From: Schmidtea polychroa
Lineage: Eukaryota
DNA: 64,000 nucleotides
Direction of reading: 5' to 3'
Assembly: GCA_044892525.1 (NCBI GenBank)
Contig: CM097887.1
Coordinates: 80,764,397 to 80,828,396 of the forward strand
Shown here in pieces: positions 5,397 through 57,938 of the stretch; within the stretch, counting starts at the first letter, position 1, and every line of letters begins with the position of its first letter. A program made the translations under genes and the position numbers. A model generated the notes under the pieces. It had not been told where the DNA came from. It made no database searches and worked only from the letters and a program-made list of their open reading frames with translations.

Positions 5397-5821
5397 TTCG
5401 AGGTTCGGGTCTGTGTGCGCCTTTTACTATCCTTGTGTTGTTGGCTGTGGGCGCACACAGACGCATATAGTTGTGGGTGTGGTTTGGCTTTTTTCTATCG
5501 CGTCTGTGTGCGCGGTCTGTTTAGACCGAATATTGTTGGAGTGCCCACACAGACGCGAGCAATGGATTGATTTTGTAATCGAAGTTTTTTTGGGTTTTTG
5601 TTTTATTGGGTTAAATATTGAATGGAATTAGAGAAAATTCTGGAATGTTAATGAAATAAGAGTTGTTTAGTTGGATAAAGTTTGAATTGTGAATTAAAGG
5701 GGTTTTAAATTGAAGTCTGGAAGACAAACTGTCGATATTTGGATATTGGATAGATTATCACTAATACAATTTAAATATTAAATTGATTTAATTCATTATG
5801 TCTGGACACCAACGAAATACA
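5390..5821 (+). repeat. Bel/Pao 3' LTR (right boundary approximate)
   Basis: Starts tgtttaattcg after the PPT, ends cgaaataca (TGT...ACA termini); contains aataa-type signals. Confidence 0.7.
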
Positions 5822-6332
5822 TGTGGAATTGATTTTCAAACATCTTCAAATGCTGATTCATCCAAGAGATCATATAATGCAAATCCTCCTCCTTCCTGTT
5901 TAATGACTGATTTTCAAACATCTTCAAATGCTGATTCATCCAAGAGATCATATAATGCAAATCCTCCTCCTTCCTGTTTAATGACTGATTTTCAAACATC
6001 TTCAAATGCTGATTCATCCAAGAGGTCATATAATGCAAATCCTCCTCCTCCTTGTTTAATGACTGATTGTCGAGCTCGAGTATGTCGTGCACGAATGGGA
6101 GCAGCTCGATTTGAATATAAAATTGGATATGAAATGCTTGGTGCTATAATATGTCGCTCTATTGCCGATATTGATCAACTCTATTCCCAATCGGCTGAGA
6201 GGCGACCATTAGGATGTTCAGTGATGGCATTATCTGATAATATGCAACTGGACAAAATGACATTATTAAAAATTGATGCAATGTCCTCTTTTGAGGAAAA
6301 TAAAAGCTTTATGCAGTCGTGTGGACTTAAAC

Positions 6333-6337
<5 letters not shown>
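5822..6337 (+). pseudogene. 3' part of an unknown ORF interrupted by the Bel/Pao insertion, possibly a Maverick gene
   Basis: Open frame from the LTR edge to a stop at the (AAT)n array; the track's ATG (5798) lies inside the LTR. Confidence 0.35.
5831..6068 (+). repeat. Three tandem 78-bp repeats (26-aa unit DFQTSSNADSSKRSYNANPPPSCLMT)
   Basis: Units start at 5831, 5909 and 5987, nearly identical, no spacers. Confidence 0.95.

Positions 6338-6420
<83 letters not shown>
6333..6420. repeat. (AAT)n microsatellite, about 29 units
   Basis: Direct reading. Confidence 0.98.
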
Positions 6421-6423
<3 letters not shown>

Positions 6424-6580
6424 CCTTTTAATAACTAAAAAATTCGCAACAATAAAAACTTTGACTATTTCACAATAAAATAGTCTAAAGAATACTTTAC
6501 AATAACAACGTAAAATAAATGATACAAATAAGAACTAAAACAATAATTATATTAAATAAAATTTTATTTCAATACAAAAT

Positions 6581-8845
6581 TTATTCAAGAACATATTGAT
6601 GTTCCCTTTCATATGGAAAGTGTGGGTGACCATAATCATCATTTGGGAAATATGGTTGAACGTATTGATCATTTTCTTCGTCCGGATCACTAACTTCAGC
6701 ATTGTTACTATGACCCATAACCGTGTTAACTATTTTATAATGACCATATGCTACACTTTCATTTTTATTTACCCAATGCCTCTTATCATCATTATTAGTT
6801 AGGGCTAATTTTATATTTTTTATTGTGAATAACTGATGATTTTTACTTACTATTCGAGATTGTGGTACTGAAATCATCGAATTATTATGATAACAATCAA
6901 GGTACGATTGATGTTTTAAGTCGGTACCCTTCAATGTTATTCCCTTAGCCTTGTTGCTCTCTTTATCACCCAAAAGGCTATAGCATTTAGGCCTTAAAAA
7001 CACCCATTCCTTATATCTACCCCCTTTATTTTCATCTTTGAATTTACCAATGACGGAATCAAGAGCTCTTGAATATAATTCATGAGATGAATCATAATTC
7101 GATGTATCCAGCATGTTATCTCTTACCATAGCTGGTAAAAGCACATCTAATTTGCATCCTTTAACATCTAAAAAGAAGGAATCAGTGTCACCTGCAATAA
7201 TATTGATTTCACAGCTAAAATCATCTCGATATTTTTGTAAATCAATATATTGCAACTGATACATACGTAATTTGGATAGATCCAGTACAGATTGACCAAT
7301 GTAACTAGGTCTATCCAAACACACTGAATCCTTATTTAATAGAACGGCTATTAAGTCATGATCTATTTTATAAGTCTTTTTAAATGTGGGTTTAGAGGAA
7401 TAAGTAATCAGTTTAGAAGCTGAGTTACACAATCTCAAGTTCAATCGTTTCTTCAAATTTTCGACTGTCTTTCCATATAAACTATTGTTAAGAAGCTTAA
7501 AATAGTTTTTATCAAGAGTATTTGTTGACACAGCTCGAAATTGGGTGTTTGTGTCAATGTAATTTTTGAATATAGTAGACTGATGAAATTTGATAGCCCT
7601 GTGAATTTGAGTAACTTTTACTCCAAGAGAAAGATAAAGTTGTAGAAGTTTCCAATGAAGAACATAGTTCTTCTTGGGTAAATGTGTAAGCATCAACTTC
7701 TCCACTTTAGATCCTGGAGCACACATTTTTTCAGCTGCAACCGGAAAATCATTAAGTTTATCGTGAATAGATGTTGGAATATCTAGATCCACTTCCATAG
7801 TATACCCATATGAAAGTGAATCTAGATCAATAGATTCACAGTCTTTTAATAAATTAATTAATTCAGGCTCATCCGTCACCCAAGAAAATTCACCCCTAGG
7901 TAGTTTTTGGCTAAGAGCCCAGCCGTACAAATTATTAATATCGATATATAGAAGTTCAGTATTTTCATTTGTATTAACATAATGTTTGTTTACAAATGTC
8001 AACCCCCCTCTTATACCACCCTCAAAGAAATTAAACATCTCCATGTCTTGAATCAACTCGATGGGTTCGTCTAAAGTCATCAGAGCTGAATTCCAAGACA
8101 TACCGGGAATGCCCAAGAAGTTTAAAGGTTCAAGACGATTATGAGCTAAAGATTTATTTCGAAACTGCTGGAAAAAGTCAGCTAAAAGAAAGACATCTAG
8201 TTTTAGATAGACCATCATATAATCACAAAGGTTATTACAGTTGGTTTCCCTCCATATAATTTCAGCCATAGAATATTCGTCTTCAGTAACACCATCCCAA
8301 ATTGGCGGTAATTGGGGAGTTGACTGAAGCACTTCAAGACTAGTGGCAAAATTATATGGGAAAATTCCTTTATTATTAACAATGGTTCCCCTAAATTCTG
8401 ATCGTGTTATCGGTAAATTAGTAAGAGTTTTAACAGCGTCATTTAACGAACTATTAATAAATTGGCAGGAATCGATAAATTTAATATTTAAACCACCTAT
8501 TCTCGCAGATAATGTTAAGAACTTTTCAGTTGTCGTTGGAATGCATGAAATATTCCAAGATTTAAAGCTACTCAATCCGTATTTGATGATATGATGAAGA
8601 TCATACCCTCGCAAGTTATGGAAAACAATTGGAAATTCATATCTTATTTGACGAGAATTATTACAAGTTGAACAAGCTGCTCCCAAATATTTACCAGTAA
8701 AGTGATTATGATCTTTAGTCGGGTTTACTAAAGTTTTCTTGCAAAGATAACACATAACTGCGGAAGAAAAAGAAATAAGGTCAGCATCTGTAAAAATAAT
8801 TTTCTTTTTCGAATTTTTATAAAAATAAGGTAAAACTGTTTTCAT
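6581..8845 (-). CDS. polB: Protein-primed DNA polymerase B, C-terminal part
   Basis: DHNHFTG..GAAC, FHNLRGYD, YIDINNLYG, KLLNNSLYGK, GDTDS, IGKFKDE, FLRPKCY, KAKGI. Confidence 0.95.
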   Translation of the reverse strand: MKTVLPYFYKNSKKKIIFTDADLISFSSAVMCYLCKKTLVNPTKDHNHFTGKYLGAACSTCNNSRQIRYEFPIVFHNLRGYDLHHIIKYGLSSFKSWNISCIPTTTEKFLTLSARIGGLNIKFIDSCQFINSSLNDAVKTLTNLPITRSEFRGTIVNNKGIFPYNFATSLEVLQSTPQLPPIWDGVTEDEYSMAEIIWRETNCNNLCDYMMVYLKLDVFLLADFFQQFRNKSLAHNRLEPLNFLGIPGMSWNSALMTLDEPIELIQDMEMFNFFEGGIRGGLTFVNKHYVNTNENTELLYIDINNLYGWALSQKLPRGEFSWVTDEPELINLLKDCESIDLDSLSYGYTMEVDLDIPTSIHDKLNDFPVAAEKMCAPGSKVEKLMLTHLPKKNYVLHWKLLQLYLSLGVKVTQIHRAIKFHQSTIFKNYIDTNTQFRAVSTNTLDKNYFKLLNNSLYGKTVENLKKRLNLRLCNSASKLITYSSKPTFKKTYKIDHDLIAVLLNKDSVCLDRPSYIGQSVLDLSKLRMYQLQYIDLQKYRDDFSCEINIIAGDTDSFFLDVKGCKLDVLLPAMVRDNMLDTSNYDSSHELYSRALDSVIGKFKDENKGGRYKEWVFLRPKCYSLLGDKESNKAKGITLKGTDLKHQSYLDCYHNNSMISVPQSRIVSKNHQLFTIKNIKLALTNNDDKRHWVNKNESVAYGHYKIVNTVMGHSNNAEVSDPDEENDQYVQPYFPNDDYGHPHFPYEREHQYVLE

Positions 8846-8892
8846 ACCAATTTTTTCAATCTCTTTAAGGAAACTAACAATACAATCTAACC

Positions 8893-9981
8893 CTAAAAAC
8901 TTTTATATAATTTAGTCCCTGTGAAATTATTTATTAGCAAAAGACCTGCAGAAATCGGCAAGTGCCTTTGAAAATATCTATTATCAGTAGGTAAGATAGC
9001 CTCAAAGTCAGCGTAAACCACAAAAGGGGGAGTAACTGTTTTAGACCAATCATTAAAATATAAATTCTTATTTAATGGTAAAGTATATAAAGTTGTTCCT
9101 AATTGATTTTTCTCACATAAACCTTTATGTTTATCTAAAGATTCAAGTGTACGGAAGCCATTTAAACAGCGATTACACCACAGACTTTGAATTCGAGTAC
9201 TAGTAACAGTAGAATTACGACAATTTAAAAGTCTATCAAGATTAGTGACTCCTATATAATGAAAAGAATCACTGCTTTCCAACAAAATTAAATTAATCGG
9301 TCTTCCGCCTACAACTTTCGATCTATGTATGATGTCAACATAAGGATGTTTTATTACTTCAGAATTATTTAAAATATCCACTAAAGCATCCTCATCGTAT
9401 GCAAGAACATTAATCGAAAGCCCTGGATTTTTATCTTCAAATTTAGGTATATTACAGAGACGCATCGGTAAGTCAGAAGGATCAAAGACTAGATCAGACA
9501 AATTATAATTACTAATTCGATTTCTATGATTGCCATCAACGTCATCGTATTTCAAAATAGCCAAAATGCTATAGATGAAACACAAATCATCCGTATTGTT
9601 AATATTTATTACGCAATGTTTATTTAATAATGATTTAGGAGTTGGTAGAGAACCCCTCCCACTCAATCTACTTATTTGAGAAAATTTTGTAATAACAAAA
9701 TGTATTTCTTTAATTTTATTAATAATCCAATTACTTCCCTTTTCATTAATTAAAGTAATTTTCTCATTGAGAATAGCAATACCTTCATTTAAAAAGGTAT
9801 CACTTATGGGTCTTGCAGAATTTGAAATGACGAAAGATTGAAATTCTCCATCTTTTTCAAATTCCACTTCTATACAAAATTGAATCTTTACAGAACCCAT
9901 TTCTCTGGTAACATTATTAAATTTATTAATTAAGGGCGTGGGTACGGTTAAAGAATTTAAATTTAAATTTTCAACCATCAT
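8893..9981 (-). CDS. polB: pPolB N-terminal part; joined to the C-terminal part by a 1-nt frameshift in a T5 run near 8895
   Basis: GSNW, CVININNTDDLCF, SINVLAY, HY, C..C..GF, VVYADFEA; restoring one T gives KLYKSFLGLDCIVSFL...IGMKTV. Confidence 0.9.
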   Translation of the reverse strand: MMVENLNLNSLTVPTPLINKFNNVTREMGSVKIQFCIEVEFEKDGEFQSFVISNSARPISDTFLNEGIAILNEKITLINEKGSNWIINKIKEIHFVITKFSQISRLSGRGSLPTPKSLLNKHCVININNTDDLCFIYSILAILKYDDVDGNHRNRISNYNLSDLVFDPSDLPMRLCNIPKFEDKNPGLSINVLAYDEDALVDILNNSEVIKHPYVDIIHRSKVVGGRPINLILLESSDSFHYIGVTNLDRLLNCRNSTVTSTRIQSLWCNRCLNGFRTLESLDKHKGLCEKNQLGTTLYTLPLNKNLYFNDWSKTVTPPFVVYADFEAILPTDNRYFQRHLPISAGLLLINNFTGTKLYKSF

Positions 9982-10469
9982 TTAACTATGGCATGTGATT
10001 TACGTAAATCATAATTTACAACCGGTTCTAATGATCCACCATATTGTATCGTACTATCATTAATTATTTCGGCATCAGAGTCAGAAAGAGTTATTATATC
10101 AACTCCATTTTGAGAGTCAGATAGAAAATCTATATCCACATCATTTTCAAAATCAGGAAGAGTTACCATATTATTTAAAACTACATCATCGTCTTCAGAA
10201 TCCGAGAGAATAATAATTTGATCATTATTATTTAAATTTTTAATTTTAGATGGACGAGGGTTACTTATAGGCAAATCAGATTTCCTTTTATTAATTGAGA
10301 AATTATTTGGTAATTTAAAAATTTGTTTTTTCTTCAAAAGATTAAATCGATTTAAATGATCTTTATGTTGATCATAAAAGTTAGAATAATTTAATTTTTC
10401 AGTGGAATTACAAATGGGGCAAACAAAATAAATAACACGGTTATGGGGTTGGCCATAGTATTTTTCCAT
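9978..10469 (-). CDS. Maverick accessory protein with C2H2-like motif and acidic SUMO-interacting-like motifs
   Basis: CPIC...HKDH; IIILSDSEDDD, VDIITLSDSD; stop overlaps the polB ATG (ATGA). Confidence 0.65.
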   Translation of the reverse strand: MEKYYGQPHNRVIYFVCPICNSTEKLNYSNFYDQHKDHLNRFNLLKKKQIFKLPNNFSINKRKSDLPISNPRPSKIKNLNNNDQIIILSDSEDDDVVLNNMVTLPDFENDVDIDFLSDSQNGVDIITLSDSDAEIINDSTIQYGGSLEPVVNYDLRKSHAIVK

Positions 10470-10851
10470 AGTTTTATGACAATCATTGTCATGAAAGGAA
10501 GAATTACAAAACTTTGGATATAAGATACCTAAGTTTCAAAAGAAATTATCAAAGGATTGCATTATAAATAAAAATGAATATATGAAAATGAATATATGAA
10601 CATCACAAATTGATTATTAGAAATAAATATTTAAAAAATCAAAAATACTATACACACACATAAAATCTTTCATCCAATAAAATTAAAATGATTTGTTAAA
10701 AAGAAACTAATTGGTCAACTCGATTTTTAAAATTAATATATATACTGAGTGCATGAAATTATTATATTTAATGATGCAACAATATAAAAGTAATTTTATT
10801 ATCATTATCTAGTATTGCTTAATCATTATTCTAGAAATTTCAGTGAAAAAG

Positions 10852-11330
10852 ATGGAGAAACAAGTAAATTCAGATATAATAAAGTTAATTCTACAGGAAA
10901 ATTCAACATCGGCAGTTAATCCTATTAGAAAATCTCCTGTTCAGCTCCTACAATATTCTATGGAATATTTAAAATACCCAATAACTTATTCATTTAAAGT
11001 AAATATATTTATATCATTTAATCAAATATTAATTAAATTTTTTATTAGGAACCTGTAACTTTGAAACAGAGTTTATATAATATACAAGTAGGTAAAATTG
11101 GAGATATCGATAGAAAAAATATTTTAGAATTATTGTTGGCTATCAATAAAAATATTCAATTCAATGAAAACTTTACATTTATGAATTGTGATAAAGATTA
11201 TGCTTTAGAAAATATTAAAAAAGAAAATGAAAATTCACATTTTATGATAAAAATTCAAATTCAGGGTTTTAAAGAAGGAAAAGAAACAATCAGCCCTATA
11301 TGGAAAATAATTGATACTAATATATTATAA
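10852..11330 (+). CDS. Unknown Maverick gene, spliced (exons 10852-10998 and 11049-11330, about 142 aa)
   Basis: 50-nt phase-0 GTAAAT...TTATTAG intron joins two track ORFs in frame (YSFK|EPVTLKQ). Confidence 0.65.
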
Positions 11331-11557
11331 GTCTTTATTTGTTTCTTATGTTATGGTATACATTATAATTTAATTAAAAATATTGCATTAAAAAAATTTT
11401 TTTTTTATTGATAAATTTAAATTGATTTAAAATAATTAAATTTAAATAAAATCATAAATTATTATTATCTAATAAATTCAAAATTGTTTTAATTTTTACT
11501 TTGAGTAAATTAATTTAAATTCAAATTTGTAAAATAAATTAAAATGAAATATAATAT

Positions 11558-11893
11558 TTAAATTAATATTAATTTAATTAAAATGAAAATATCTTTAAAT
11601 ACTGAAAAATATATATAATACTTACATTTTATCATGTTTGCATTAATTTTCTTGGAATTATTTCGAACCATTTTATCATTGTTGGTGTTTAAGTTTTTGT
11701 TGTTCATGTTATTTGAGTGGTTGCAAATCTTGCTATTGACGTTATTCATGTTATTTGAGTTGTTGTAATTGTTGTTGTTGTTGCAATTCATTACCTAGAA
11801 AACATTATAAGAGAATTATTAATTAATTAATTACATAAAACTTACAAAAGTTTGGGTATTGATAAAAGTGACTTTTAAATGAATTGTTTTCAT
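11558..11893 (-). CDS. Small Asn-rich Maverick protein, spliced (exons 11893-11846 and 11794-11558)
   Basis: 51-nt GTAAGT...TTTCTAG intron in phase 0; TATATAAA and ATTGG motifs just upstream. Confidence 0.45.
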
Positions 11894-12058
11894 TTATATA
11901 CTACATATTACACAACAATGATTCAATAAAATAGTAACCAATAAAATTCAAGAAACCAATCACATAATCACATACCATTAAATTATATTTACTAGTAGAA
12001 TGACATAAAAAATTACAAACTAACAAGATAATATTTATTTGATTAAATTTTCTTATAT

Positions 12059-12444
12059 TCAAAGATCTTTCATTGACTTCAACCACGCTAAACAATGTTG
12101 CCCACATGTTTTTGTCAATGGACTTTGATAGCGAATTTTATTATATTCAATTGGCATTAACAATGATTGAAGTTTTGATATTAATAGAGGAGGATAATAA
12201 AACCCCATGGGATCAAATGCATATATTTTTTCCGGTTTCACATAAACTGCGAGCCAATGCTCTCCCTTGAGATTACAAGATTGAGTATTTACAATTAAAG
12301 CCTTGTTTACATCAATATATGGTATTTTATCTAATGGAAAAACTCCAAGAAATTCAGCTCCGAACAATCTTCGACCTATGTATTCAATCTGAATAGAACT
12401 ATTATCAATAAATTAAAGTAATAAAAATGAAATTCTTACTTCAT
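12059..12444 (-). CDS. Adenain-like cysteine protease, spliced (exons 12444-12440 and 12398-12059, 114 aa)
   Basis: GVFPLD, GEHWLA, FDPMG, Q....TCGQHC catalytic motifs; a 41-nt GTAAG...ATAG intron supplies the start MNSIQIEYIG. Confidence 0.9.
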
Positions 12445-12506
12445 TTTTAATAATTATTGTTTCCTAATTTGGTTTATAGTTCAAGCCAATCATTTTCAAA
12501 CTTTAT

Positions 12507-13733
12507 TTACACTAGTACTGTACGATTGGATGTAATTTGAATCTCTTTTTCAAAGACGCCATAGACTATTACAGAAATTGATTCTGTTAGAGGTGTTCCA
12601 AATTTAATATCAAGTCTTAAATTTCCTTGCTGTGGCAATTGACTTTGATTAAGATCAAAGTCTGGAGCCAATACAAATGTAAAGAATGGATACTTTTCTT
12701 TAAAGTCAGACATACTAATTCCACAATTAATATTCTTATTAAGGTAACCCATGTTTCTAATTATTGACTGCATATAACTTGTACTATAATTATCATTTTC
12801 AAAATCTTGACTATATTTTTCACGATAGTCGCTTCCTTTCAATAAAGTTATTGATTTTACATTATTGTGGTCGTACATTGAATAAGAATGTGTTAGTGAT
12901 CCATTATTTCTTTTATTTCTTTGAAATGTTACAAGGATAAAATTTGGTAATCGCCGATCACCAAAGATTTGTTCTTTATAAAAAGAAGAAGATCCAGTAG
13001 GTAACGAAAATTCGACAACTTCCTTGCTTCTCAAAGGATAAATTGCATTTCTTGAAGCAAGTCCAATTTGATGACCAGCTAAAACGGATGGTTCAACTCG
13101 AACTCTTCTTACCATTAATTTTGCATCTAATAATTCAATTTTAGGTTCTACTTTTGTACATGTTAAACTATGTGATGGAATTGATCTCGTCAATTTAATT
13201 TGGACACTAACACCAGGTAATAAATATTTTGGTTGATCCATAAAATCAAATTGTATTGGTGAACATAATGAAAATGGTTTAGATTTTGCAATCCACGCTT
13301 TTCTTATATTATCATCTTCACTGTACCCCATACCTTCTAAAAATGTACGTTTTGTATCATGATTGTAATTTAATATTGTTTCGATTAATGCTTTATGAGC
13401 AAATGTATCATTTCCTCCTTCAACTTTAATAGAATTAAAAATTAATTCAGCTTCTTTAAAAAGAGTTTGGAAAAAGAAATTGTTTGCAGTTACAACAGAA
13501 TCATCAGAAATATTTTCACCTACATTATTTACAACTTTCAACTGAAGATAAAGTAAAGTATCATTCCAATCTAAATATTCGGTTTGAGATCCGTTAATGT
13601 AAAATTGAATTGAAGAGGTACCAGTATCCGTAATTGAATTCGTTGGATAAATATCTTCAAATAAACCATGTTCAATTATTGCTTGAGGTGATGGTCTATC
13701 AAAAATACATAATTCAGATTTTGCACTAATCAT
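12507..13733 (-). CDS. Maverick major capsid protein (double jelly-roll, PY/hexon-like)
   Basis: KSELCIF...PQ..IE.G, YLD..DT.LY, YLLPGVSV.IKL.R, FTFVLAPD, GNLRLDIKF, VYG.FE..IQI...RTV. Confidence 0.9.
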   Translation of the reverse strand: MISAKSELCIFDRPSPQAIIEHGLFEDIYPTNSITDTGTSSIQFYINGSQTEYLDWNDTLLYLQLKVVNNVGENISDDSVVTANNFFFQTLFKEAELIFNSIKVEGGNDTFAHKALIETILNYNHDTKRTFLEGMGYSEDDNIRKAWIAKSKPFSLCSPIQFDFMDQPKYLLPGVSVQIKLTRSIPSHSLTCTKVEPKIELLDAKLMVRRVRVEPSVLAGHQIGLASRNAIYPLRSKEVVEFSLPTGSSSFYKEQIFGDRRLPNFILVTFQRNKRNNGSLTHSYSMYDHNNVKSITLLKGSDYREKYSQDFENDNYSTSYMQSIIRNMGYLNKNINCGISMSDFKEKYPFFTFVLAPDFDLNQSQLPQQGNLRLDIKFGTPLTESISVIVYGVFEKEIQITSNRTVLV

Positions 13734-14131
13734 TTTTCGAATATAGTTCCAAAGCCTTTCATTCTTTTGTTTATATGCTTCTTTAATGTTTTTCTGCGTT
13801 TAATCATTCCACCTTTTTGTTCATTCTCTTGTTTATTAAAAACATCAGATACTTTATTAATTACAGTAGGCAAATGTTGAATTACATCAGGTAGTGAATG
13901 TTTAATTTCAGATAAAACATTTGATTTTAAAGCAGGTAGAATTTTTGAATTGTTATTTATTACATCATGTGCAGTTTTCATACCAAAATTACCTATGCGT
14001 CTAAGAATTGGTAAAGCAAATCGACCTATTGTTTTTAACCAACCTGTTCCATATTGTTTACCAACAAAATATGGTAAATCTCCACCAGATTGACTATTAC
14101 TATAAAAGTTTACAATATCAGGATTATTCAT
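13730..14131 (-). CDS. Small basic Maverick virion/core-like protein with QxGxG motifs
   Basis: FY..SQSGG.LPYFVGKQYGTGW..IGRFALPILR; basic C-terminus; overlaps the penton stop and the MCP start. Confidence 0.7.
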   Translation of the reverse strand: MNNPDIVNFYSNSQSGGDLPYFVGKQYGTGWLKTIGRFALPILRRIGNFGMKTAHDVINNNSKILPALKSNVLSEIKHSLPDVIQHLPTVINKVSDVFNKQENEQKGGMIKRRKTLKKHINKRMKGFGTIFEK

Positions 14132-15155
14132 TTATTTTACGAAAATGTAGTGTTAAATGTGTTTTGGTGTCTTTTGAAAATTTAACTAAATTTCCACTAT
14201 CGTTGCGAATATTAATTTCAATGTTGCTTATAGATGAAGATGAAATTGGAAGGTACATTGGGTTCTTTATTTCTAACTGTACAACCTCTCCCTGTTCATA
14301 TCTTTTAATCCATATCGATTTTAATAGAGAAACTCTTACATCACCAACATTTATTGGTTCAATGATATTAGAATAAATAAACATTTGTTGATGAATTTTA
14401 AATATTTTTGGAATTTTCACACCAACAAAGTCTTTTTCATTATAAGTTTGATTCTTTAATCCTAAAGCTTTTGTTAATTTTTGATCAAAGGTAATATTTG
14501 AAATATCATCTACAAGTGTTATTTTTACCAATTCTTGATTTTGAAGATGTATTTCTTTAAATGGAGATGGATTAATTGTCATTAAATACCCTCGCAACTC
14601 TGATAAAGTAGTTAAGAATAATTCATCTTCAAAATAATGTTCGAATTTTGTCTTGATATCATAATTTATAGTTATCCCAATTTGTTCAATGATATTATTT
14701 TCAGTAAATTTAGGTAGTTTAATTCGACAATGGTCAGTTTTGCTAATGATTGATATGGTTTTTAATTCAAACTTAGATGCATGTTTGGTGTCAAGAAATG
14801 ATATTTTAAATGGAACATGTGGACAAACTATCACTAAGTTTTCATATCTTTCCAAGAACACATCAACATCTGGATTATATGTAGAATTTAAAATTTTTAA
14901 GATTTTGTTTTGATTATCAATTTTCAAGTATTTAGTTTCTTCGCATGATTTTTTAAATTCGTATTGTACCCATGAATTACTGTAATACGGAAAATGATTA
15001 TACACAAATGTAAAATCAATCAAAGCTACTTCCCACTTCCCATTCAAATAAATTGGGTTTTGAAATTCAACTTTAAAATTACTAGCATTATTATCAGGAT
15101 AAATAAGAGGACAACTATTACTAGATAAAATCATATAAAACTGGTTTTCCTTCAT
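14124..15155 (-). CDS. Maverick minor capsid (penton/PX-like) protein
   Basis: FYMILSSNS...YPDN.ASNF, LNGKWEVAL, MFIYSNIIEP..VGD, YLPI....ISNIEINIR, LHFR. Confidence 0.88.
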   Translation of the reverse strand: MKENQFYMILSSNSCPLIYPDNNASNFKVEFQNPIYLNGKWEVALIDFTFVYNHFPYYSNSWVQYEFKKSCEETKYLKIDNQNKILKILNSTYNPDVDVFLERYENLVIVCPHVPFKISFLDTKHASKFELKTISIISKTDHCRIKLPKFTENNIIEQIGITINYDIKTKFEHYFEDELFLTTLSELRGYLMTINPSPFKEIHLQNQELVKITLVDDISNITFDQKLTKALGLKNQTYNEKDFVGVKIPKIFKIHQQMFIYSNIIEPINVGDVRVSLLKSIWIKRYEQGEVVQLEIKNPMYLPISSSSISNIEINIRNDSGNLVKFSKDTKTHLTLHFRKINE

Positions 15156-15160
15156 AATAT

Positions 15161-15902
15161 TTATTTAATCAATTGGTTTTCAGATATCCAGCTAGGATGT
15201 TTATAACCATGCCATTTCACATAGTATTGTTTATATTTCCCGTCTGATTTAGTTTTTAAAATCTCTTGAATTCTGAAGATTGTGGGTGATGGAATGACTT
15301 GTAGTTCTGGTTCGTAGAATTTGCCACTGACTTGATCGTTTTCATTATCTGTAATAAAGTACATGACCGGATTTTGATTAGTATCTATTTTCGATATTTT
15401 AAAAACTTCATCACTCCAATTGTTATCAAAATTCTTGATGAATGGAGAAGCACTGATTTTACTTATTCTAACATGGTCTCCTACTTTATATTTCGGCTTT
15501 TTTGTTTTTGATTTATCTTGTTGTGATATCCAAGTATCAATATTATTTGTTGAATAAATATCGATTGGTCTCATTCCATTTATTCCTCTATGAGGTGAAA
15601 AATTGTAACTATAAATTATTTTCGACAATACATTTATCCACGTTTTATTGCCTTGATATACAAAATATTTTTTCAAACGATCTCTTAAAGTACGATTGAA
15701 TCTTTCCACGTGCGCTGCTTTATATTGTGAAAATACTGAGTAATGATTTATTCCTTTGATAATTTCTTTAACTTTGCTATTATAAAATTCTTTACCTAAA
15801 TTTAAAATTAATTAAAATTATTTAATTTATAATTTTACCCAAATCTGTTTGTAAATTACGAGGCTGTCCGTCAGCAAATAATGTTTTTAATGCATCAGCC
15901 AT
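15161..15902 (-). CDS. int: Maverick retroviral-type integrase with C-terminal chromodomain, spliced (exons 15902-15839 and 15795-15161); N-terminal catalytic Asp region missing
   Basis: P..LQTDLG|KEFYN restored across a 43-nt intron; VERFNRTL; KYKVGDHVRISK; NWSDEVF; FYEPELQ; YYVKWHGY. Confidence 0.9.
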
Positions 15903-15918
15903 TTAGTAGTTAGAAAAA

Positions 15919-16305
15919 ATGTCAAAAGGTAAAGAATATATTTTTATTTATAATTAATAATCTTTATATCTAGTTTACTTATTTGAAGTAATTTTAAAGA
16001 AGTTTCAAGAATTATACCCAGGAATAAGAAATACCATAGATTATTGTGCACCAGAGTTACTTATAAATAAAATATTTCGTTTAACAGGTATTAATATAGA
16101 ACAACTTTTAGAGTTGCACTACGATATGGTTCTAAGGTCTGACACTAGATGCATTGAAAATTGCATTGTTTGCAAAGATTCTATGAGATTGTCATGCCCC
16201 AATGGGTGTCCATGCTGTCACGACTTTAAAAGGGATCAATCAGTCCATATCTTATTAGCTGAAATGCGTAAAGCATACCACACAGATGTATTTAACTTGA
16301 AATAA
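15919..16305 (+). CDS. Cys-rich small Maverick protein, spliced (exons 15919-15928 and 15974-16305, 113 aa)
   Basis: 45-nt GTAAAG...TCTAG intron containing in-frame stops; C..C..C....C...C.CCH cluster. Confidence 0.65.
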
Positions 16306-16414
16306 AATGTTTTATATAATTTTTAAAATTTTTATCAATATCATTTGCCTTTTACATTGTTATTGTGAAATAGTCAAAGTTTTTATTGTTGTGAACAATT
16401 TAGTTATTAAAAGG

Positions 16415-16417
<3 letters not shown>

Positions 16418-16507
<90 letters not shown>
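16418..16507. repeat. (TAT)n microsatellite, about 30 units
   Basis: Direct reading; flanked by sequence inversely similar to 6421-6570. Confidence 0.98.
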
Positions 16508-16645
16508 CTGTGTGTGAATTATAACCGAGTGTTTATCACATTCATTGTCATCATTATAGTACTCGGGTTCAAAAATGTATGTATGACTTTTTCTTATATA
16601 TGTTTATAATTCAATAAATATATATCTATAATAAAATTATACAGA

Positions 16646-17075
16646 ATTATGTAACACCATACCACCACCCCCTAGGGTACCCATACAAATATTACGTAAT
16701 ACTGTATATTTGGCTTGGTTTATACTCCTCACTTCTCACTACTCTATCAAAATGTATTGAATTTTTTCCAGGGATATTTGGCTTGGTTTATACTCCTCAC
16801 TACTCTAATGAAGTATAATTATTACATAAGAGGTCAAAGGTCAATTTTTATGTAAGGGTCAAAGGTTAAATATGATGTAAGAGGTCAAAGGTCAATTATT
16901 GCATAAGGGGGGTCAATTATGACGTAAATTAAAAAACCAATTATTACGTAATCATAAATATAATTACGTCATTTTTCAAAATTATGTAACACCCTACCAC
17001 CCCCTAGGGTACCCATACAAATATTACGTAATACTGTATATTTGGCTTGGTTTATACTCCTCACTTCTCACTACT
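16646..17075. repeat. Maverick terminal region with reiterated end sequence
   Basis: About 95-bp direct repeat at 16646-16743 and 16980-17075; ttggcttggtttatactcctcac...tact ends at 16743, 16804 and 17075. Confidence 0.85.
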
Positions 17076-23404: not shown

Positions 23405-23625
23405 CTTTAAAATCAATTATTGTTATTCACAATTTGGGGGATAGGAATTGAGATCAGAGGGTATAGTATTTTATATTGGGAAAATATATTTATAAAAAAA
23501 CAATATCATTGACCAATTTTTAAATAAATAAATTCAGTTTTGAAAATTATTAAATAATTCAAAAAGATAAAATAGATAATCAACCAGAAATAGTTTATAA
23601 TCTCAGAAATAGAATAGTCTATAGG

Positions 23626-25272
23626 ATGAATAATAATAATAATAATTACATAAAAATTTTACCAGTAGAACCATATAGAGGAGAGCCTGAAAAGTTCGAC
23701 GATTTTTTCACTGAGATCGCTCAGTATGCAGAAGCTTGTGGTTGGACACCTGATGAATTAAAAATGAGAATCCCATTATACTTAAAAGGCTATGCGTTAC
23801 AGGCATACAATAACTTAGAATGTAAAGGGAATAATTTTGATCAACTCGTAAGATATCTGAGAGCAGAAATAGTAATCGATAGCGATTTACAAAAGATAAA
23901 TGTTCAAAAATTTAGAAACAGATATCAAGGTACTAGAGAATCAGTTGGTGAATATGTATATACGATTACGGAGTTAGCGAAAAAGGCATTTGGTGCGGGC
24001 GAGCACACAGCAAAGTTAATTGAGGATCAGTTTTGGAATGGTATACAAAAATATTTATATAAAGCATTAATTATGGTAGAATATGGTAATTTAAATGAAT
24101 TAGTTCATAAAGCTAAACGTATAGAAGCAATACAACGAGATAGATTTAGCTCACATGTAGATGCAATGGAAATTCAAAAACCCATCGAGGTAAAATCTGA
24201 GTTGGGTAAGTCAGATGACAACATTCCCTGGGAGGAGATGAAGCAACTATATTTAAACTTTGTAAAAAATAGACGAAGGGTAAGCCCGAGTCCGGATAGA
24301 AGTCAATCGCCTGAAAACAGGAGGAGGTTTGATAATGTGAGAAACAGAAACTTTGAGAATAGAAACAATAGAAACACTTTTGATAGAGATAATCGATATG
24401 AATACAATAGAACTAATTATACGAGAGATAATCGAGTCGATTTTAGTAGAAATAATTTGAGAAATAATAAATATGATAGAAGTAATAGATATGATAATAG
24501 AGATAATACAAATGATTTGAGACGTAGACAGACAAGTCCATATAGACAGAATTCATATAGAGAAAGGCGAGCAAGCCCTTATAATAATGATGGTAGAGAT
24601 AAAGTAAATTTTAATGGACAGATCAAATGTTATAATTGCCAAAAATATGGTCACTTAGCTAAAGTATGTAACAATGCGCGAAGCGAATCGCCTAATAGAG
24701 TGAGATTTAAAAATGAGCCTGAGATAAAACAAATTAATAGTGCTGAGTTGATATCAGCTAATGAGGAAATAAACAGTTTGAGAGAGGAATTAAAAGAATT
24801 TAAAACTCAATATGGGAGACTTATTGAGAGAAAGTTAGAAATGTCATTAAATGAGTTTCAGTGTTTTACTAATGATGTAGATATAGATAATGATGAGTTT
24901 CGCGAAGCAAGAGAAGCGGATGAGAAATTTCTTGCAGAAGCAAATAGATGTAAAGAATTAAAAGAGGAATTGAAAGAGACATTAGAGAAATGGCCTTATG
25001 ATGACAATGAGACATTGCGTATAATAAATAGAGTTCAAGTCGAAGGAATTGACTTAGAATATTTGAGAAATTTGATACCACTAATGGTAAAGAGGCAAAA
25101 TATGACAAGAGTATTTGAACTAGAAATAGAATTGAAAGAAATGATAAAGTGTTATGGTGAATTTGTGAGAAAAATTCAGAAATTACATGAGTCATTGAAT
25201 ATAACTATTGAGGCAAAGGACCTTTCGAGAATACTTATGGTAGTACAGGGGTACATGTTTGCACAAAAGTGA
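23626..25272 (+). CDS. gag: Gypsy Gag with RS/RD-rich region, zinc knuckle and coiled-coil C-terminal extension
   Basis: EPYRGEPEKFDDF...ACGW, Q..RESVGEY, CYNCQKYGHLAKVC. Confidence 0.92.
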   Translation: MNNNNNNYIKILPVEPYRGEPEKFDDFFTEIAQYAEACGWTPDELKMRIPLYLKGYALQAYNNLECKGNNFDQLVRYLRAEIVIDSDLQKINVQKFRNRYQGTRESVGEYVYTITELAKKAFGAGEHTAKLIEDQFWNGIQKYLYKALIMVEYGNLNELVHKAKRIEAIQRDRFSSHVDAMEIQKPIEVKSELGKSDDNIPWEEMKQLYLNFVKNRRRVSPSPDRSQSPENRRRFDNVRNRNFENRNNRNTFDRDNRYEYNRTNYTRDNRVDFSRNNLRNNKYDRSNRYDNRDNTNDLRRRQTSPYRQNSYRERRASPYNNDGRDKVNFNGQIKCYNCQKYGHLAKVCNNARSESPNRVRFKNEPEIKQINSAELISANEEINSLREELKEFKTQYGRLIERKLEMSLNEFQCFTNDVDIDNDEFREAREADEKFLAEANRCKELKEELKETLEKWPYDDNETLRIINRVQVEGIDLEYLRNLIPLMVKRQNMTRVFELEIELKEMIKCYGEFVRKIQKLHESLNITIEAKDLSRILMVVQGYMFAQK

Positions 25273-28200
25273 ATAAAGTGAAACAGATGGCCAGAGCAAA
25301 TTGGCCCGAGAAATTGGGAGATAATGATAAAGTGAAACTGTATTTTAACGGCGTAGAAATGATGAATAATGAATATATAATTGACTATGGAGTAAACGTC
25401 ATTGATAACAATATTATTTCTGCAGTAATAGAAAGGCAAGAAAGTAAAGAAATTGATACACCAACTCCATCAGTAGAATTGAGTATAAATGACGAAAATG
25501 ACTATGATAAATTATTTAGATTGTGGGATGCTTCTTCAGGAGGAGCAATGAGGTCACCAACAGTTAGCGATGAAATCTTTAAACCTATTGATACTAAATA
25601 TGATAATTTACATGAGACAATAGAAAAAATTGCGAAACAAGCAAATATGCAGGACGCAGAGACGATGAGACGAGGTAGAGGAAGGCCTCGAAAATCTGAA
25701 ATAGCCGAAAAGTCAGATGACAGAAAGGCAGCAGAGCGTTTAAGAGATATTGCAAATAATATGAGACAGGAAGTCCCAAAAAATCAGGATAATGACAAAG
25801 ATATAAAGATGATAACTGAGTTAGTTAAAGCAATGAATATGAGACGATTTCCGGAAGCAAAACCATCAGCGTTAATAGAAAATATAGTTAAAAAGATTAA
25901 ATTAATGGAAAAAGAGATTAGAGAATTGAGTGCAGAGGAAGCAAATGAAGAGACAGTGTTAAAGATATTATTTACAACAGGAGTTAATCGAGATAAAGTG
26001 ATTACGGCAATGGCATATTTAATAGCAAGATACAAGAAACTTTTGCGATTGAATCCAAAGAATCAAATAGAAAATATCGCTAAAATGATATATAATAAAT
26101 TAAAGATAGATGCTATGCCATGGATAAAATTAAAGGGAGGATGGAAAATACTGTATGATGAGAGTCTAATCGAAAGTGCTCAGGAAAGCGTAGAAGATAA
26201 TATTAATGTAGAAATAGATGATACGGAGGAAACAGTAAAAAATCTAGTAAATAAAACAACTATGAAACCAAGTCAAAAAGAAAGAAAGTCGACAATGTCA
26301 ATAGTAATTATAGTAATAACATTGTTATTAGATCTGATAAAAGGGAATAATGCGATCATAGCGTATGACTGTCAGAATCCCAAGTGGGGACAAAAATATT
26401 CATTGCTGGATGTAGAAAATTGCCCAGAGGCTAATCCAACAAAATTAATTGTAGCAGACCCCAAGATTTTCCATATATATCAGGAATCTGATTTCATTCA
26501 CACTGAGGCAGGAGAATGTATCGTTAAATATTCAGAGGAAAGTTTTGTATGTAATAAAATAGCGAGAACAATATTAACTCCAACATGGGCACCAGAAGCA
26601 ATAATAATAACGCCAGTTGAATGCGAAAATGCATTTAAAACAAAAAAGATAAAAACGCCGGATGGATTTGAGTTAGATGCTCAGGTAGGAGCACGAGTTA
26701 GACAATTAGTAAATGTCGTGGGATGGTCATCAACAGGAGGATATTGTGAAGGAGGAAGGTATAAAATATGGGGGCATGTGGCAGACAATATTGTAGTGAG
26801 ACGGCAGTATTATATTGAATTAAGGAAATTCAAAGCGTCATTTGATAGTTCATCAAAGAAAATGATGACACATAAGTTCTGCACATTAGAGGAGACAAGC
26901 TGTGATACAGGCGAGTCAATGATCATATACAGAGTGAATAAATACGAATGCCATCTAACTAAATTAAAGACACTGAAATTCAGAACGATACGAGGTAAAC
27001 AGTTTACGGATGTAGAATCCAAGAGCATCAAAGACCAAAAACGACGAGCAACGATAATTCAAGAGAGAGATACCCCAACAATATACATATCAGATTCTGA
27101 AACAGAGGCGATGAGATTTGTAGGAAAAGGTGAAAGCATAAAATGTGGCAAGGCAGTCGTACAAACAAATTATTATATCAGCGGAAGTGAAATTAAAGAG
27201 GCAAAATCGAGAATAGATAAATTCGACGTCAAGCTAGCATCATATTTTAATAATAAAATTGACTATTTCTATCATCATCAGTTAGTACAATTGGACAAGG
27301 TGTACCAAGCAACTATCGCAAACGATTGTAAACTTAATAGAGAAATATTAAGGACAAAGATGGCGGTTGCAGTCACAAACCCAGATTTAATGGCACCAAT
27401 TTTATTTGCAGAAAAAGGGACATTTGCAAGAGTTGTCGGTGAAGTGATACAAACATTTCAGTGTAAACCGGTTAGCGTATCGTTAGCAACGAATAATAAG
27501 TGCACAAACGAATTGCCAGTAGTGTATAAAGGAGAAACTGTATACCTCCAACCAATAACAAGGATATTAACAGATAAAGACTATGTTCCGAGAAAAATTG
27601 ATAAATGTACTAATCTATTAGATCCATTATACAAAATAAATGATGATATGTGGATTACAATGTCAGATAGAAAAGAAGCGACTAAACCACAAAAACTAGA
27701 ACTAACTGAACTTGAGAAAAAGTTAGAATTTCAGGAAGTCAACGAAATGGATAACAATGGGATGTATACGAGAGAGGCGATAGAGAGCGCCAGAAAACAT
27801 ATGTTATTTCCTCATGAAAAAGAAAAAGTTCTTTCTATCATGGTAAACAAAATCATCGAAAATGGTTATGGAGGAAATTACAACTTTGATGTATTATTAT
27901 CAAAAGAGCACTTCGAGAAAGTTGTGTATAGAGTATTATACAGCATATGGGGATATTTTGCGATTCTCGGAAATACGTTTTCCACTATATTGGGTATATA
28001 TTATACAGTAGCACTATTGAAAATGATTTGCTCATCATTAGTTTCGTTAAGACAACTGAGACAAGTTTTTGGTAATTCATATAAAATGATAGCATGTTTA
28101 TGTCCATTCATAGCCAAATATTTGATCACTGCGAGGTACGATAAGGAAATCAAACGGATGAAAAGTCGAAGGGAAGAGGGTGAAATAATGATCACCAATG

Positions 28201-30008
28201 AGAAAGAGGACGATACAAACAGATCAGAAAATATTGAGCAACCACATATTGGGTTATATGATAATCAAAGAGAACAATTGACAGAATTGAGAAATAATAT
28301 TGAAATTAGAATCCCAGGTGAAAATGGTAATTGTCATTGTGTTCCAAGGAAAACTTATGGATGTTACGGGTTAGAACTTGACGATATATTAGAAGGGTTA
28401 AATGAAGCAAGGCCTAAATTACAAATAGTGATAAATGATACGATAATAAAGACATTATGTGACACAGGAGCAGCAGCTTCTATGATTCGTGAAGATCAGT
28501 TAACCAGAAACCAAAAGAAAAATATCGTGAGCACACGAGATAGATTAATTTCATTATCATCACATTACATACCATTAAAAGGCGATATCGAATTAACAGT
28601 CCACTTTTCAGATCAAGTGGTAGAACATGTCTTCAAGGTAGTAGCAGAGTGTAAATGCGTATGTGTCCTTGGGATGGATATACTCAAAAAGTTAAAAAAC
28701 TGTGTAATCGATTTAACGGATAGCACAGTCAAACGCAAGGCAATATATCAAGACGCAAGATTTACTGAAGTAATTGCATTAGAGACATTTGAACTAGAGT
28801 ATCAAAGTGATCATATAATTCCAGTAAAAGTTAATGTTAAAAGTGAGGACACTTTCATTTTCGAGCCTGAAACGGCAATATCACGAAATCATAACGTAAT
28901 GTTAACAGACGAGTGTGTAATTCCAAATAATGGGATAATTCCAATAAGAATCGCGAATTACGAAAGAAATAAAGTAAAAATTCATAAAGGTACAAAATTG
29001 GGAAAGTTGTTCAAAGGTGAATTAGAGCAAACATTTGAAGTATGTGAGATGTCGATGACGAAGGATGTCAGTGAAAGAATGGTCGAACAGAGTAGAGCGA
29101 ATAATATCAAATTTTATGATAAAATTAAAATAAATAATAATTATCTAAATGAAACACAACAACTACAACTACAAATATTACTTGACGAATACAGTGATGT
29201 TTTTGCAAAACACGAATTTGATTTAGGAGATACTGACATTATCAAACATGTAATCGATACAGGGAATGCTAGACCAATAAAACAGAGACCCTATAGTGTA
29301 CCATATAAACTGAGGGAGGAAATAAAACGACAAATTAAAGAATTAAAAGAGGCAGGCGTAATAAAACAAAGTTTTTCACAATGGGCATCACCTATCGTAC
29401 CAGTTAGAAAGAAAGACGGGGAAATTCGAATGTGCATTGATTATCGTAAATTAAATGATGTAACAGTAAAAGACTCATACCCATTCCCAAAAGCACAAGA
29501 ACAATATGATAAACTTAGAGATACTAAATATTTCACAGTAATAGATGCAAATAAAGGCTACATGCAAATTCAAATGGAAGAGGGGGATGCGGAAAAGACA
29601 GCTTTTGTGATAGAAGATGGTTTATATGAATATACAAGATTACCTTTTGGGTTAACTAATGCGCCAGCAACATTTCAACGTTTAATGAATACAGTATTAG
29701 TAGACGTACAACATTGCGCAGTATATATGGATGATATATTAATTTCATCAAAAACATTTGAGGAACATCTAAAAGATATAGCTAACGTACTAGAAAGATT
29801 AAAAAAAGCAAAAATCAAAATAAAACCCACTAAGTGTAAATGGGCAGAACCTTCAGCATTATTCTTAGGACATATAGTTACAGTAGATGGTATAATACCT
29901 AATCCCGATAAAATTGAAGTAGTTAAAAAATTCCCAGTTCCAAAAACATTACAACAAGTACAGGGATTTTTAGGTCTCACAGGATATTATCGCAAATTCA
30001 TACAATAA
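25269..30008 (+). CDS. env-pol: Polyprotein part 1: AT-hook region, signal-like segment, chuvirus-like class III glycoprotein, TM, protease, RT
   Basis: RRGRGRPRK; MSIVIIVITLLL...AYDC...YSLLDVENC; GEV..FQCKPV.V, LPV, GMYT...MLFP; CDTGAAAS; YMDD. Confidence 0.88.
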   Translation: MNKVKQMARANWPEKLGDNDKVKLYFNGVEMMNNEYIIDYGVNVIDNNIISAVIERQESKEIDTPTPSVELSINDENDYDKLFRLWDASSGGAMRSPTVSDEIFKPIDTKYDNLHETIEKIAKQANMQDAETMRRGRGRPRKSEIAEKSDDRKAAERLRDIANNMRQEVPKNQDNDKDIKMITELVKAMNMRRFPEAKPSALIENIVKKIKLMEKEIRELSAEEANEETVLKILFTTGVNRDKVITAMAYLIARYKKLLRLNPKNQIENIAKMIYNKLKIDAMPWIKLKGGWKILYDESLIESAQESVEDNINVEIDDTEETVKNLVNKTTMKPSQKERKSTMSIVIIVITLLLDLIKGNNAIIAYDCQNPKWGQKYSLLDVENCPEANPTKLIVADPKIFHIYQESDFIHTEAGECIVKYSEESFVCNKIARTILTPTWAPEAIIITPVECENAFKTKKIKTPDGFELDAQVGARVRQLVNVVGWSSTGGYCEGGRYKIWGHVADNIVVRRQYYIELRKFKASFDSSSKKMMTHKFCTLEETSCDTGESMIIYRVNKYECHLTKLKTLKFRTIRGKQFTDVESKSIKDQKRRATIIQERDTPTIYISDSETEAMRFVGKGESIKCGKAVVQTNYYISGSEIKEAKSRIDKFDVKLASYFNNKIDYFYHHQLVQLDKVYQATIANDCKLNREILRTKMAVAVTNPDLMAPILFAEKGTFARVVGEVIQTFQCKPVSVSLATNNKCTNELPVVYKGETVYLQPITRILTDKDYVPRKIDKCTNLLDPLYKINDDMWITMSDRKEATKPQKLELTELEKKLEFQEVNEMDNNGMYTREAIESARKHMLFPHEKEKVLSIMVNKIIENGYGGNYNFDVLLSKEHFEKVVYRVLYSIWGYFAILGNTFSTILGIYYTVALLKMICSSLVSLRQLRQVFGNSYKMIACLCPFIAKYLITARYDKEIKRMKSRREEGEIMITNEKEDDTNRSENIEQPHIGLYDNQREQLTELRNNIEIRIPGENGNCHCVPRKTYGCYGLELDDILEGLNEARPKLQIVINDTIIKTLCDTGAAASMIREDQLTRNQKKNIVSTRDRLISLSSHYIPLKGDIELTVHFSDQVVEHVFKVVAECKCVCVLGMDILKKLKNCVIDLTDSTVKRKAIYQDARFTEVIALETFELEYQSDHIIPVKVNVKSEDTFIFEPETAISRNHNVMLTDECVIPNNGIIPIRIANYERNKVKIHKGTKLGKLFKGELEQTFEVCEMSMTKDVSERMVEQSRANNIKFYDKIKINNNYLNETQQLQLQILLDEYSDVFAKHEFDLGDTDIIKHVIDTGNARPIKQRPYSVPYKLREEIKRQIKELKEAGVIKQSFSQWASPIVPVRKKDGEIRMCIDYRKLNDVTVKDSYPFPKAQEQYDKLRDTKYFTVIDANKGYMQIQMEEGDAEKTAFVIEDGLYEYTRLPFGLTNAPATFQRLMNTVLVDVQHCAVYMDDILISSKTFEEHLKDIANVLERLKKAKIKIKPTKCKWAEPSALFLGHIVTVDGIIPNPDKIEVVKKFPVPKTLQQVQGFLGLTGYYRKFIQ

Positions 30009-32696: not shown

Positions 32697-32841
32697 AAAT
32701 AATATAGATAATTTCAATTCCTATTGGTCAATGATAATATTTAAACTCACATATATTTATATTTTTATTTATATTGAAGCGTATAAGGTAAAGCCTCAAA
32801 TGCGCTGTAAATATGTATGTTTATATTGTTTTTTTAGAAAA

Positions 32842-34404: not shown

Positions 34405-34410
34405 GAGCCA

Positions 34411-34545
34411 ATGTTCATCATCAAAGAGGGAAGATCCACTATCTCGGAAAAAGAAATACATCAACACTTCGGTAGACGAATTATTGATGGTGATGTGTTA
34501 AAATTGGCATTGAAGAAAGATTCCAAAGAGCAACAATGTATATAA
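34411..34545 (+). CDS. Small ORF (44 aa) between ORF3 and the PPT
   Basis: ATG 7 nt after the ORF3 stop; overlaps the next ATG. Confidence 0.3.
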   Translation: MFIIKEGRSTISEKEIHQHFGRRIIDGDVLKLALKKDSKEQQCI

Positions 34546-34748
34546 ACGGTTGCGAAATCGAATTGGTCCTTAGCGATAAAGGTAATGAGGACATTACTTT
34601 ATCGGCCCTAGGAGGAGTGTTGGATGACAGAGGAAGAAGAATTGAAGAGTTTGAACTAACACACTACTATAGAACGGGCAGCAACAAGTTCAGAGTCAAT
34701 ATCTATGTGGAACCCAGACAACCAAAGCCGGACAATTCAAAATATTGA
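34536..34748 (+). CDS. Small ORF (70 aa) spanning the PPT and running into the 3' LTR
   Basis: Open frame with GC-richer, coding-like composition extending about 130 bp into U3. Confidence 0.4.
   Translation: MYINGCEIELVLSDKGNEDITLSALGGVLDDRGRRIEEFELTHYYRTGSNKFRVNIYVEPRQPKPDNSKY
34610..34617 (+). promoter_or_regulatory. Gypsy polypurine tract
   Basis: aggaggag directly before TGTTGG. Confidence 0.7.
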
Positions 34749-35580: not shown

Positions 35581-36234
35581 ATGTTTTTTGACGCAAAGTT
35601 CGATAAAGTTCCGGACAAATTTATAAAAAAATGAATCATGATAAAGTTTCGAACACATAGTTATTTACACAAAGATAAGAATATTGATCAAAGTTGTTTT
35701 TCAATCATTAGCTCTTGTTTGGGGAATTGGATTGTTGAGTTGTCGATCCGGATTGCAGAGATGGAGGTCTACGAGAAGATTTTATTTATTGACGTTCTTC
35801 GGCGTACACGTTAACTCTGTACTTGTCTGGCCCTCCTCTATAATATTTGTCTAAAGTGAATGCAGTGATGGGTCTACCCTCATCATCTAACACTGGCATG
35901 TTATCAATTAATTTTTAAAAATTACTAAATGATCTCAAATATTTTGCATCATCGAAATTTTGCCCAGTTTCATAATTTTATAACATCACTGATTTCCTGT
36001 TCGACACTTTAATTTTTAACTATTTGCTTAAAATTAAAATTAAAAATTTTTACAATAAAATTATTTTGTGTCAAATTAAGTAAATTGTTTAAATTTCCCA
36101 AAATGTAAAATTTCATTTTAAAATTTATGATTTAATCTCTCATCTTTACAAATATTATGTTGGTGCCAGAATGAAATTTGTGGATTGATAATTGTTTGGT
36201 AAGGCAAATTTTTCTGGTAACATTTCCTTTAAAG

Positions 36235-43167: not shown

Positions 43168-43227
43168 TAAAATTTTATTTTCTCTTTGTTTATTGTTTGG
43201 CTTTTCATTAACTATTATTATTTATTA

Positions 43228-43270
<43 letters not shown>

Positions 43271-57895: not shown

Positions 57896-57938
<43 letters not shown>

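Follow-up and report, generated by a model that had tools for sequence, protein, structure and literature searches.

Probable inherited, host-type introns in the protease, integrase and polymerase genes of a planarian Maverick family

Can a virus-like transposon entrust its core genes to the splicing machinery of the genome it inhabits? The question is raised by a 64,000-nucleotide stretch of the Schmidtea polychroa genome (hereafter 'the window'; NCBI GenBank assembly GCA_044892525.1, contig CM097887.1, positions 80,764,397 to 80,828,396 of the forward strand), which carries an element of the Maverick/Polinton type that is present in thousands of copies within the host genome. Core genes are described as intronless in the accessible portions of reports on vertebrate Mavericks (PMC8097293) and nematode Mavericks (bioRxiv 10.1101/2022.07.12.499685), the latter placing introns only in cargo genes. 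An original prediction, made from the letters of the window alone, shared this view of Maverick core genes in general, yet proposed five short GT-AG introns within the element at hand; the family to which the element belongs is indeed interrupted in the protease, the integrase and likely the polymerase. Comparison of its sequences across copies, families and outside relatives makes it very probable that these segments are inherited spliceosomal introns of the host type.

All five segments (i1 to i5, Table 1) were found where they had been placed, beginning with GT and ending with AG on the strands of their genes. Their G+C content is 5-16%, against 25-29% in nearby 1-kb bins (the exception, bin 11001-12000, has 18%). 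A chance scan for GTA[AT]..[CT]AG segments of 38-56 nt and at most 17% G+C, criteria chosen after the segments had been seen, returned a single match within the element's uninterrupted open reading frames (ORFs; 9,001 sense bases scanned), and seven distinct donors on both strands of 6481-16330, five of which are those of the predicted segments. The claim that their sizes match introns of a host tetraspanin gene (40-54 nt) held in part: two such introns measure 54 and 49 nt, the 40-nt one was not located, and at 30% and 37% G+C both lie above the range of the segments. Insertions peculiar to this copy, with other copies uninterrupted, had been named as the outcome that would speak against introns, and the segments proved to be present in every related copy examined. 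Each of i1, i2 and i3 occurs in 8 of the 8 other copies covering it, i4 in all 19 inspected and i5 in all 10; all 39 other copies that were scored have alignments spanning i4, and a splice dinucleotide is mutated in two copies. The family, F1, is young (other copies are ~99% identical), and presence across so young a family shows inheritance, not selection. Between families the extended donor (GTAAG or GTAAA) and the terminal AG are kept while intron bodies diverge. When the exons of the integrase, the protease and a small gene, g1, are joined with an X at the junction, the spliced-protein check proposed with the prediction, they are colinear with uninterrupted homologues.

The protease (Pfam Peptidase_C5, 25 bits against a cut-off of 21.3) retains its catalytic H, D, Q and C, and its intron does supply the start codon, as had been suggested: ATG-AA lies upstream and T-TCT-ATT-CAG downstream, where the ORF has no ATG near its start. 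Left unspliced, the gene of the window copy reads Met-Lys-stop; read as M-X-exon 2, it aligns without a gap to database protein P0122. The pattern ATG-RA^GTAAG..AG^TTC (carets mark exon-intron boundaries) is common to F1, to families F2 and F4 and to three further families of the genome, in which the introns are 37-46 nt long with unrelated bodies and the unspliced form is always Met-Lys/Glu-stop. The F2 protease is 66% identical to that of F1, and i3 varies in length by single Ts among F2 copies. Genome-wide, the interrupted pattern gave 2,388 matches (control 0) and the uninterrupted one a single match (control 2), which is not a protease; a degenerate copy, L096, has the protease donor and lacks the acceptor region. 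The outside comparison set comprised 31 metagenome loci, 27 of which cover the integrase site and 5 of which, from 3 distinct elements, reach the protease. All five carry i3, in proteins 48-56% identical to the F1 protease. Shared with outside relatives at ~50% protein identity, the protease intron is, on these comparisons, old and clade-wide.

Its traces extend to protein databases. The warning that intron-blind ORF finders would miss or truncate such genes is borne out by proteases that are truncated or mis-extended there (P0121, P0123 and others), and in several of the closest database proteases the mis-called N-terminus is a footprint of i3. Six database proteases (P0135, P0142, P0143, P0145, P0148 and P0153; 49-58% identity) have N-termini made up of a YEV- or WS-type stretch plus a run of hydrophobic residues, which is what read-through of i3 in another frame would be expected to produce. 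The MISS.. starts of P0124 and P0125 were considered as intronless starts and rejected; judged by the DNA of the families and the database starts, they were more likely called inside the acceptor.

The integrase has a different history. The protein is 66-71% identical to uninterrupted integrases (PF00665 proteins), one of which, P0001, is assigned to Pfam rve and aligns to the exon-X-exon product with no gap at the junction. As predicted, i4 interrupts the motif LQTDLG^KEFYN and brings an in-frame stop if unspliced. The site is also occupied in F4 (42 nt) and in F2 (GT(ATT)nTTAG, 81-150 nt), where the unspliced integrase would have 27-50 mostly Ile residues next to a catalytic Asp. An ATT microsatellite is the whole body of this F2 intron (L042-L056). 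Relatives with an uninterrupted integrase do exist: sister families account for 110 uninterrupted motifs in the genome, and i4 is missing from 27 of the 27 outside loci covering the site. A tree of 37 integrase C-terminal pieces requires two changes, with F1 and F4 beside one uninterrupted family and F2 beside another. The integrase intron is thus patchy, confined to three families (F1, F2 and F4), and parallel gain at one site is the likely explanation of the two changes. The introns as a whole are not the product of one event, since the protease intron is old and clade-wide and the integrase intron is not. Family by family, the last bases of the exon look like those of the intron, and the first bases of the intron look like those of the following exon, the pattern that duplication of an AG^GT site would be expected to leave. 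In our view the intron likely arose late and probably on two occasions, where an (A/G)G^GT site already existed and was duplicated with AT-rich filler; it may then have become fixed because splicing makes it nearly neutral. New introns in Daphnia pulex, according to the accessible part of PMC4202315, are likewise AT-rich and carry short direct repeats, and 43 of 90 cases were parallel gains at a shared site, but they lie in host genes and not in a mobile element.

A single origin deserves serious weight, even though we hold it somewhat less probable than not: the introns would be real and the integrase intron would have arisen once in the ancestor of the clade found in this genome; several families would then have lost it precisely, or local recombination would have shifted it, and a microsatellite would have overrun the F2 body. 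Position and phase are identical in F1, F4 and F2, the genome is rich in reverse transcriptases, and counts of changes on a tree cannot separate gain from loss. One gain, however, needs about four precise losses where two gains suffice, and the F2 body is unrelated to those of F1 and F4. Intron-bearing rows were grouped in 0% of 200 bootstrap trees, and an approximately unbiased (AU) test rejected a single intron-bearing clade (p = 0.015). That test used a set of 17 rows, from which long branches, near-duplicates and rows that are distant had been removed, and a simpler model that can reject true clades.

It may be asked whether the old protease intron is retained for a purpose. It could be kept as a switch, slow or regulated splicing holding back the protease, or the introns could help transcripts escape host silencing, uses of the kind suggested in the original prediction; we think either rather unlikely. 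Conservation of i3 is far longer than that of the other introns and always entails an immediate stop, and Polintons are piRNA targets in planarians according to the accessible part of PMC8532177. Against a switch, many relatives have a canonical start: it is seen in 77 of 121 database proteases, which are either intronless or spliced. Introns beside a start codon are, moreover, simply hard to lose via reverse-transcript recombination.

Spliced function is suggested by substitution patterns in the integrase. Between F1 and F4 the two exons give nonsynonymous over synonymous rates (dN/dS) of 0.094/1.13 and 0.127/1.14 (~0.08 and ~0.11), values that indicate purifying selection on both and fit a working spliced integrase after the gain. 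The rival reading, in which the segments inactivate non-autonomous families that intact relatives copy in trans, and are inserts that are never spliced, is accordingly most improbable, despite the damaged copies, the families with uninterrupted integrase and the lack of a spliced contig considered below: the genome has no uninterrupted protease of the clade to supply the function, the exons around i4 have evolved at a dN/dS of ~0.1 since the F1-F4 split, and splice dinucleotides were retained while bodies were replaced.

The polymerase adds a probable sixth, much longer intron that was not part of the original prediction. Pfam does not call the polymerase domain, its sole match being an endonuclease VII-like stretch; PolB motifs were read by eye and are kept across families. 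In 6 of 8 other copies the ORF at 9978-10535 is continuous with the polymerase and forms its N-terminus; in the window copy the frame is broken near 8900 and 9980. The break near 8900 was considered as an intron or a programmed frameshift and ruled out, with no GT-AG fit and no counterpart in 9 of 9 other copies. A GTAAGT donor and the acceptor at 10529 lie 1,097 bases apart in the window copy and in 7 of 8 other copies. The junction is common to F1, F2 and F4, yields a Cys codon in all three and is followed by conserved residues up to the first in-exon Met. Segment i2, originally assigned to a separate small gene, likely belongs to the 5' leader of the polymerase transcript. It is probably untranslated, because a TATA-like box (11893-11900) abuts the ATG upstream of i2 and because F4, which has a like intron in this place, shows an upstream exon without an open frame. 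The polymerase leader of F2 (L041:5560-7900, minus strand) seems to be split by some five short GT-AG introns, and its acidic exons look duplicated. A Cys/His cluster lies in the N-terminal region of the polymerase (window 9978-10528, minus strand), together with acidic hydrophobic motifs that may resemble SUMO-interacting motifs.

Adenovirus HAdV-37, as described in the accessible part of PMC2397415, has comparably tiny predicted first exons (9 nt in pTP, 13 nt in IVa2), that of pTP being followed by a 3-kb intron. Adenoviruses are a related virus group, but exogenous and without an integrase, and convergence with the polymerase leader is likelier than homology. If all these introns are removed as proposed, the element would need Pol II transcription and the host nuclear spliceosome to make its protease, integrase and polymerase. 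A bolder version is offered tentatively, as a possibility that we would not yet favour: the whole clade would be spliceosome-dependent, the codon-2 intron gating the protease, the spliced leader supplying the polymerase with its N-terminus in the manner of adenovirus pTP, and the integrase active site having acquired its intron in two parallel events, one of them a pure ATT microsatellite.

Several observations weigh against splicing. Four runs of assembled contigs were aligned to 12200-16150 in 30 bins; none is on record as RNA (X1 and X3 are guessed to be RNA, X4 is likely DNA), and no exact splice joint at i3 or i4 was seen in them. X1 and X4 cover all 30 bins; X1 contigs run unbroken through both i3 and i4, and a single X3 contig includes i4, with 20 letters on the far side. 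X2, from another organism, has a joint near i4 with a 23-letter side at 90% likeness; it is not an exact splice and may stem from an uninterrupted relative. In these four runs splicing is neither shown nor refuted. No full-length, near-identical spliced integrase of F1, F2 or F4 was present among 120 listed database proteins. The window copy and the examined F1 copies are damaged, none of 8 other F1 copies having an unbroken polymerase frame, and families with an uninterrupted integrase could mobilise F1 partly in trans. Conservation also extends to the first in-exon Met of the polymerase, where translation could start. At an AT content of ~90%, finally, branch points cannot be judged.

Two small genes carry the remaining introns. 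The exon-X-exon product of g1 is colinear with an uninterrupted F2 homologue (score 121 against a shuffle maximum of 54); i1 is present in F4 at the same site, 41-43 nt long and different in sequence, and absent in F2. The gene possibly encodes a single-strand DNA-binding protein, a weak lead, the Atlas look-alikes being small giant-virus proteins, one of them with DUF2738 in 10% of members. In the Cys-rich gene g5, i5 has a counterpart of 51-52 nt and unrelated sequence at the same position and phase in F2, and none was seen in F4. A distant Maverick family, F3, with an integrase 36% identical, has long core ORFs that are uninterrupted in the one copy listed in full; the introns are therefore lineage-specific. 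Accessory regions of outside relatives hold more GT-AG intron-like segments (L104:830 and 1303, plus strand; L104 near the left end, minus strand; L112:873, plus strand), found by a loose scan with many chance hits.

How do these introns compare with those of other mobile elements? The terminal repeats, 6-bp duplication, rve integrase, A32-type ATPase and adenain protease of animal Mavericks are shared here, and the polymerase with its PolB-type motifs and the putative capsid proteins are candidates for their pPolB and capsid; their intronless core is not shared. Dinoflagellate Maverick-Polinton-like proviruses (PMC11957031, accessible part) have intron inserts too, but theirs are repetitive transposons that generate introns and mostly arrived after integration, whereas the flatworm introns are mutually unrelated and inherited at fixed sites by whole families. 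No introner-type pattern was seen among the six introns, each unrelated in sequence and bound to its site, intron bodies not having been searched genome-wide outside the element. Ginger1 transposons carry Gypsy-like integrase genes with 1-4 GT-AG introns (PMC2836005, accessible part), but move by cut-and-paste and have no polymerase or capsid module. In Polinton-like viruses (PLVs), group I introns are known, according to the accessible part of PMC12220804, a case that likewise differs from the present one. A search of the open literature, with Repbase, closed journals and supplements outside its range, turned up no description of spliceosomal introns inherited in the core genes of Mavericks, and the accessible parts of PMC10748475, PMC8502044, PMC12220804, PMC11296320 and PMC11161782 mention none. 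What appears to be newly shown by these alignments is a clade-wide protease intron reaching beyond the host genome and a two-change history of the integrase intron.

In practice a Maverick is called 'potentially active' on the strength of intact, intronless ORFs (PMC8097293, accessible part). Splicing of core genes would mean that active elements are scored as fossils and their proteins mis-called, as among the database proteases; were dependence on splicing clade-wide, intron-blind catalogues would mis-annotate the clade. Spliceosome dependence would also bind the elements to transcription in the host nucleus instead of a cytoplasmic helper virus. Close, young, high-copy families that differ in having or lacking the same intron offer a compact system for intron gain, a natural experiment of thousands of copies, in an animal for which suitable RNA data have probably been released.

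Table 1. Features of the element, in window coordinates
Feature	Position	Strand	Remarks
Left terminal inverted repeat, remnant	6333..6478	.	outer part gone; 97% complementary to 16360-16505
Polymerase gene, main part	6581..10528	-	three ORFs in window; family B-type motifs read by eye, family context
Sixth intron, polymerase gene	10529..11625	-	1,097 nt, phase 1; predicted splicing
Two-exon gene g1	10852..11330	+	exons 10852-10998 and 11049-11330; antisense inside long polymerase intron
Intron i1, in g1	10999..11048	+	50 nt, phase 0
Polymerase leader exon	11626..11794	-	Asn-rich; ends in T^GTAAGT donor, common to F1, F2 and F4
Intron i2	11795..11845	-	51 nt
Adenain-type maturation protease	12059..12444	-	exon 1, 5 coding bases, 12440-12444; exon 2, 12059-12398
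Intron i3, protease	12399..12439	-	41 nt, phase 2, inside codon 2
Putative major capsid protein	12507..13733	-	uninterrupted; Pfam DJR-like domain; outside relatives 40-54% identical, same gene order
Two conserved uninterrupted ORFs	13730..15164	-	133 and ~340 aa; kept in all families and outside relatives
Retroviral-type integrase	15161..15904	-	chromo-like tail; exon 2, 15161-15795; exon 1 remnant, 15839-15904
Intron i4, integrase	15796..15838	-	43 nt, phase 1, one residue past second catalytic Asp
Deletion junction of window copy	15902..15904	.	short microhomology; ~2.17 kb absent relative to other copies
Two-exon Cys-rich gene g5	15919..16305	+	family unassigned; homologues in F2 and F4
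Intron i5, in g5	15929..15973	+	45 nt, phase 1
Right terminal inverted repeat	16360..17075	.	ends in ACTACT

The identification of the element as a Maverick is sustained by its protease, integrase and terminal repeats and by target duplications in other copies; 'endogenous virus' is a label that it would bear on gene content alone. Ends of the AGTAGT/ACTACT type are presumably a mark of the Maverick/Polinton family. Among 10 intron-bearing copies fetched, 6-bp target duplications flank all six for which both ends were found. The left terminal repeat is whole in other copies and truncated in the window, and an ATT/AAT microsatellite lies inside both repeats (window 6330-6420 and 16408-16507). 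All 39 other scored copies cease matching at 15904 because of the deletion in the window copy, which has removed the integrase N-terminus with the first catalytic Asp, a pX-like ORF, the packaging ATPase (Pfam Pox_A32, 29.2 bits, in another copy) and a TBP-like gene. With this internal deletion, a broken polymerase frame and a truncated left end, the window copy is a defective member of F1 and therefore cannot be a functional unit. The TBP-like gene encodes 147 aa at L036:2417-2884 (plus strand; Pfam TBP, E 1.4e-14), head to head with the ATPase, and has homologues in F2, F4 and two outside loci. By sequence profile, the putative capsid protein matches Pfam PF21738 (double jelly-roll) with an E of 0.0036, under the cut-off, and a sequence search of PDB gave no match for it. 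The larger of the two conserved ORFs beside it is likely a minor capsid protein, named by position only. Two scans of IMG/VR returned no relative of the element.

Different Maverick families are often adjacent or nested (L030, L033, L035, L036, L049 and L057). In the window, a proteasome-subunit gene fragment with a 78-bp tandem repeat (5792-6337, plus strand) abuts the truncated left end, and a putative near-exact direct duplication (~30000-44500 and ~44900-59200, spacing 14,668 bp) is either a true tandem duplication or an assembly artefact. A giant Gypsy-type element at 23554-34404 has a Bcl-2-like domain and a viral fusion glycoprotein domain in front of its protease and reverse transcriptase, and resembles the planarian Burro elements described in the accessible part of PMC6431247.

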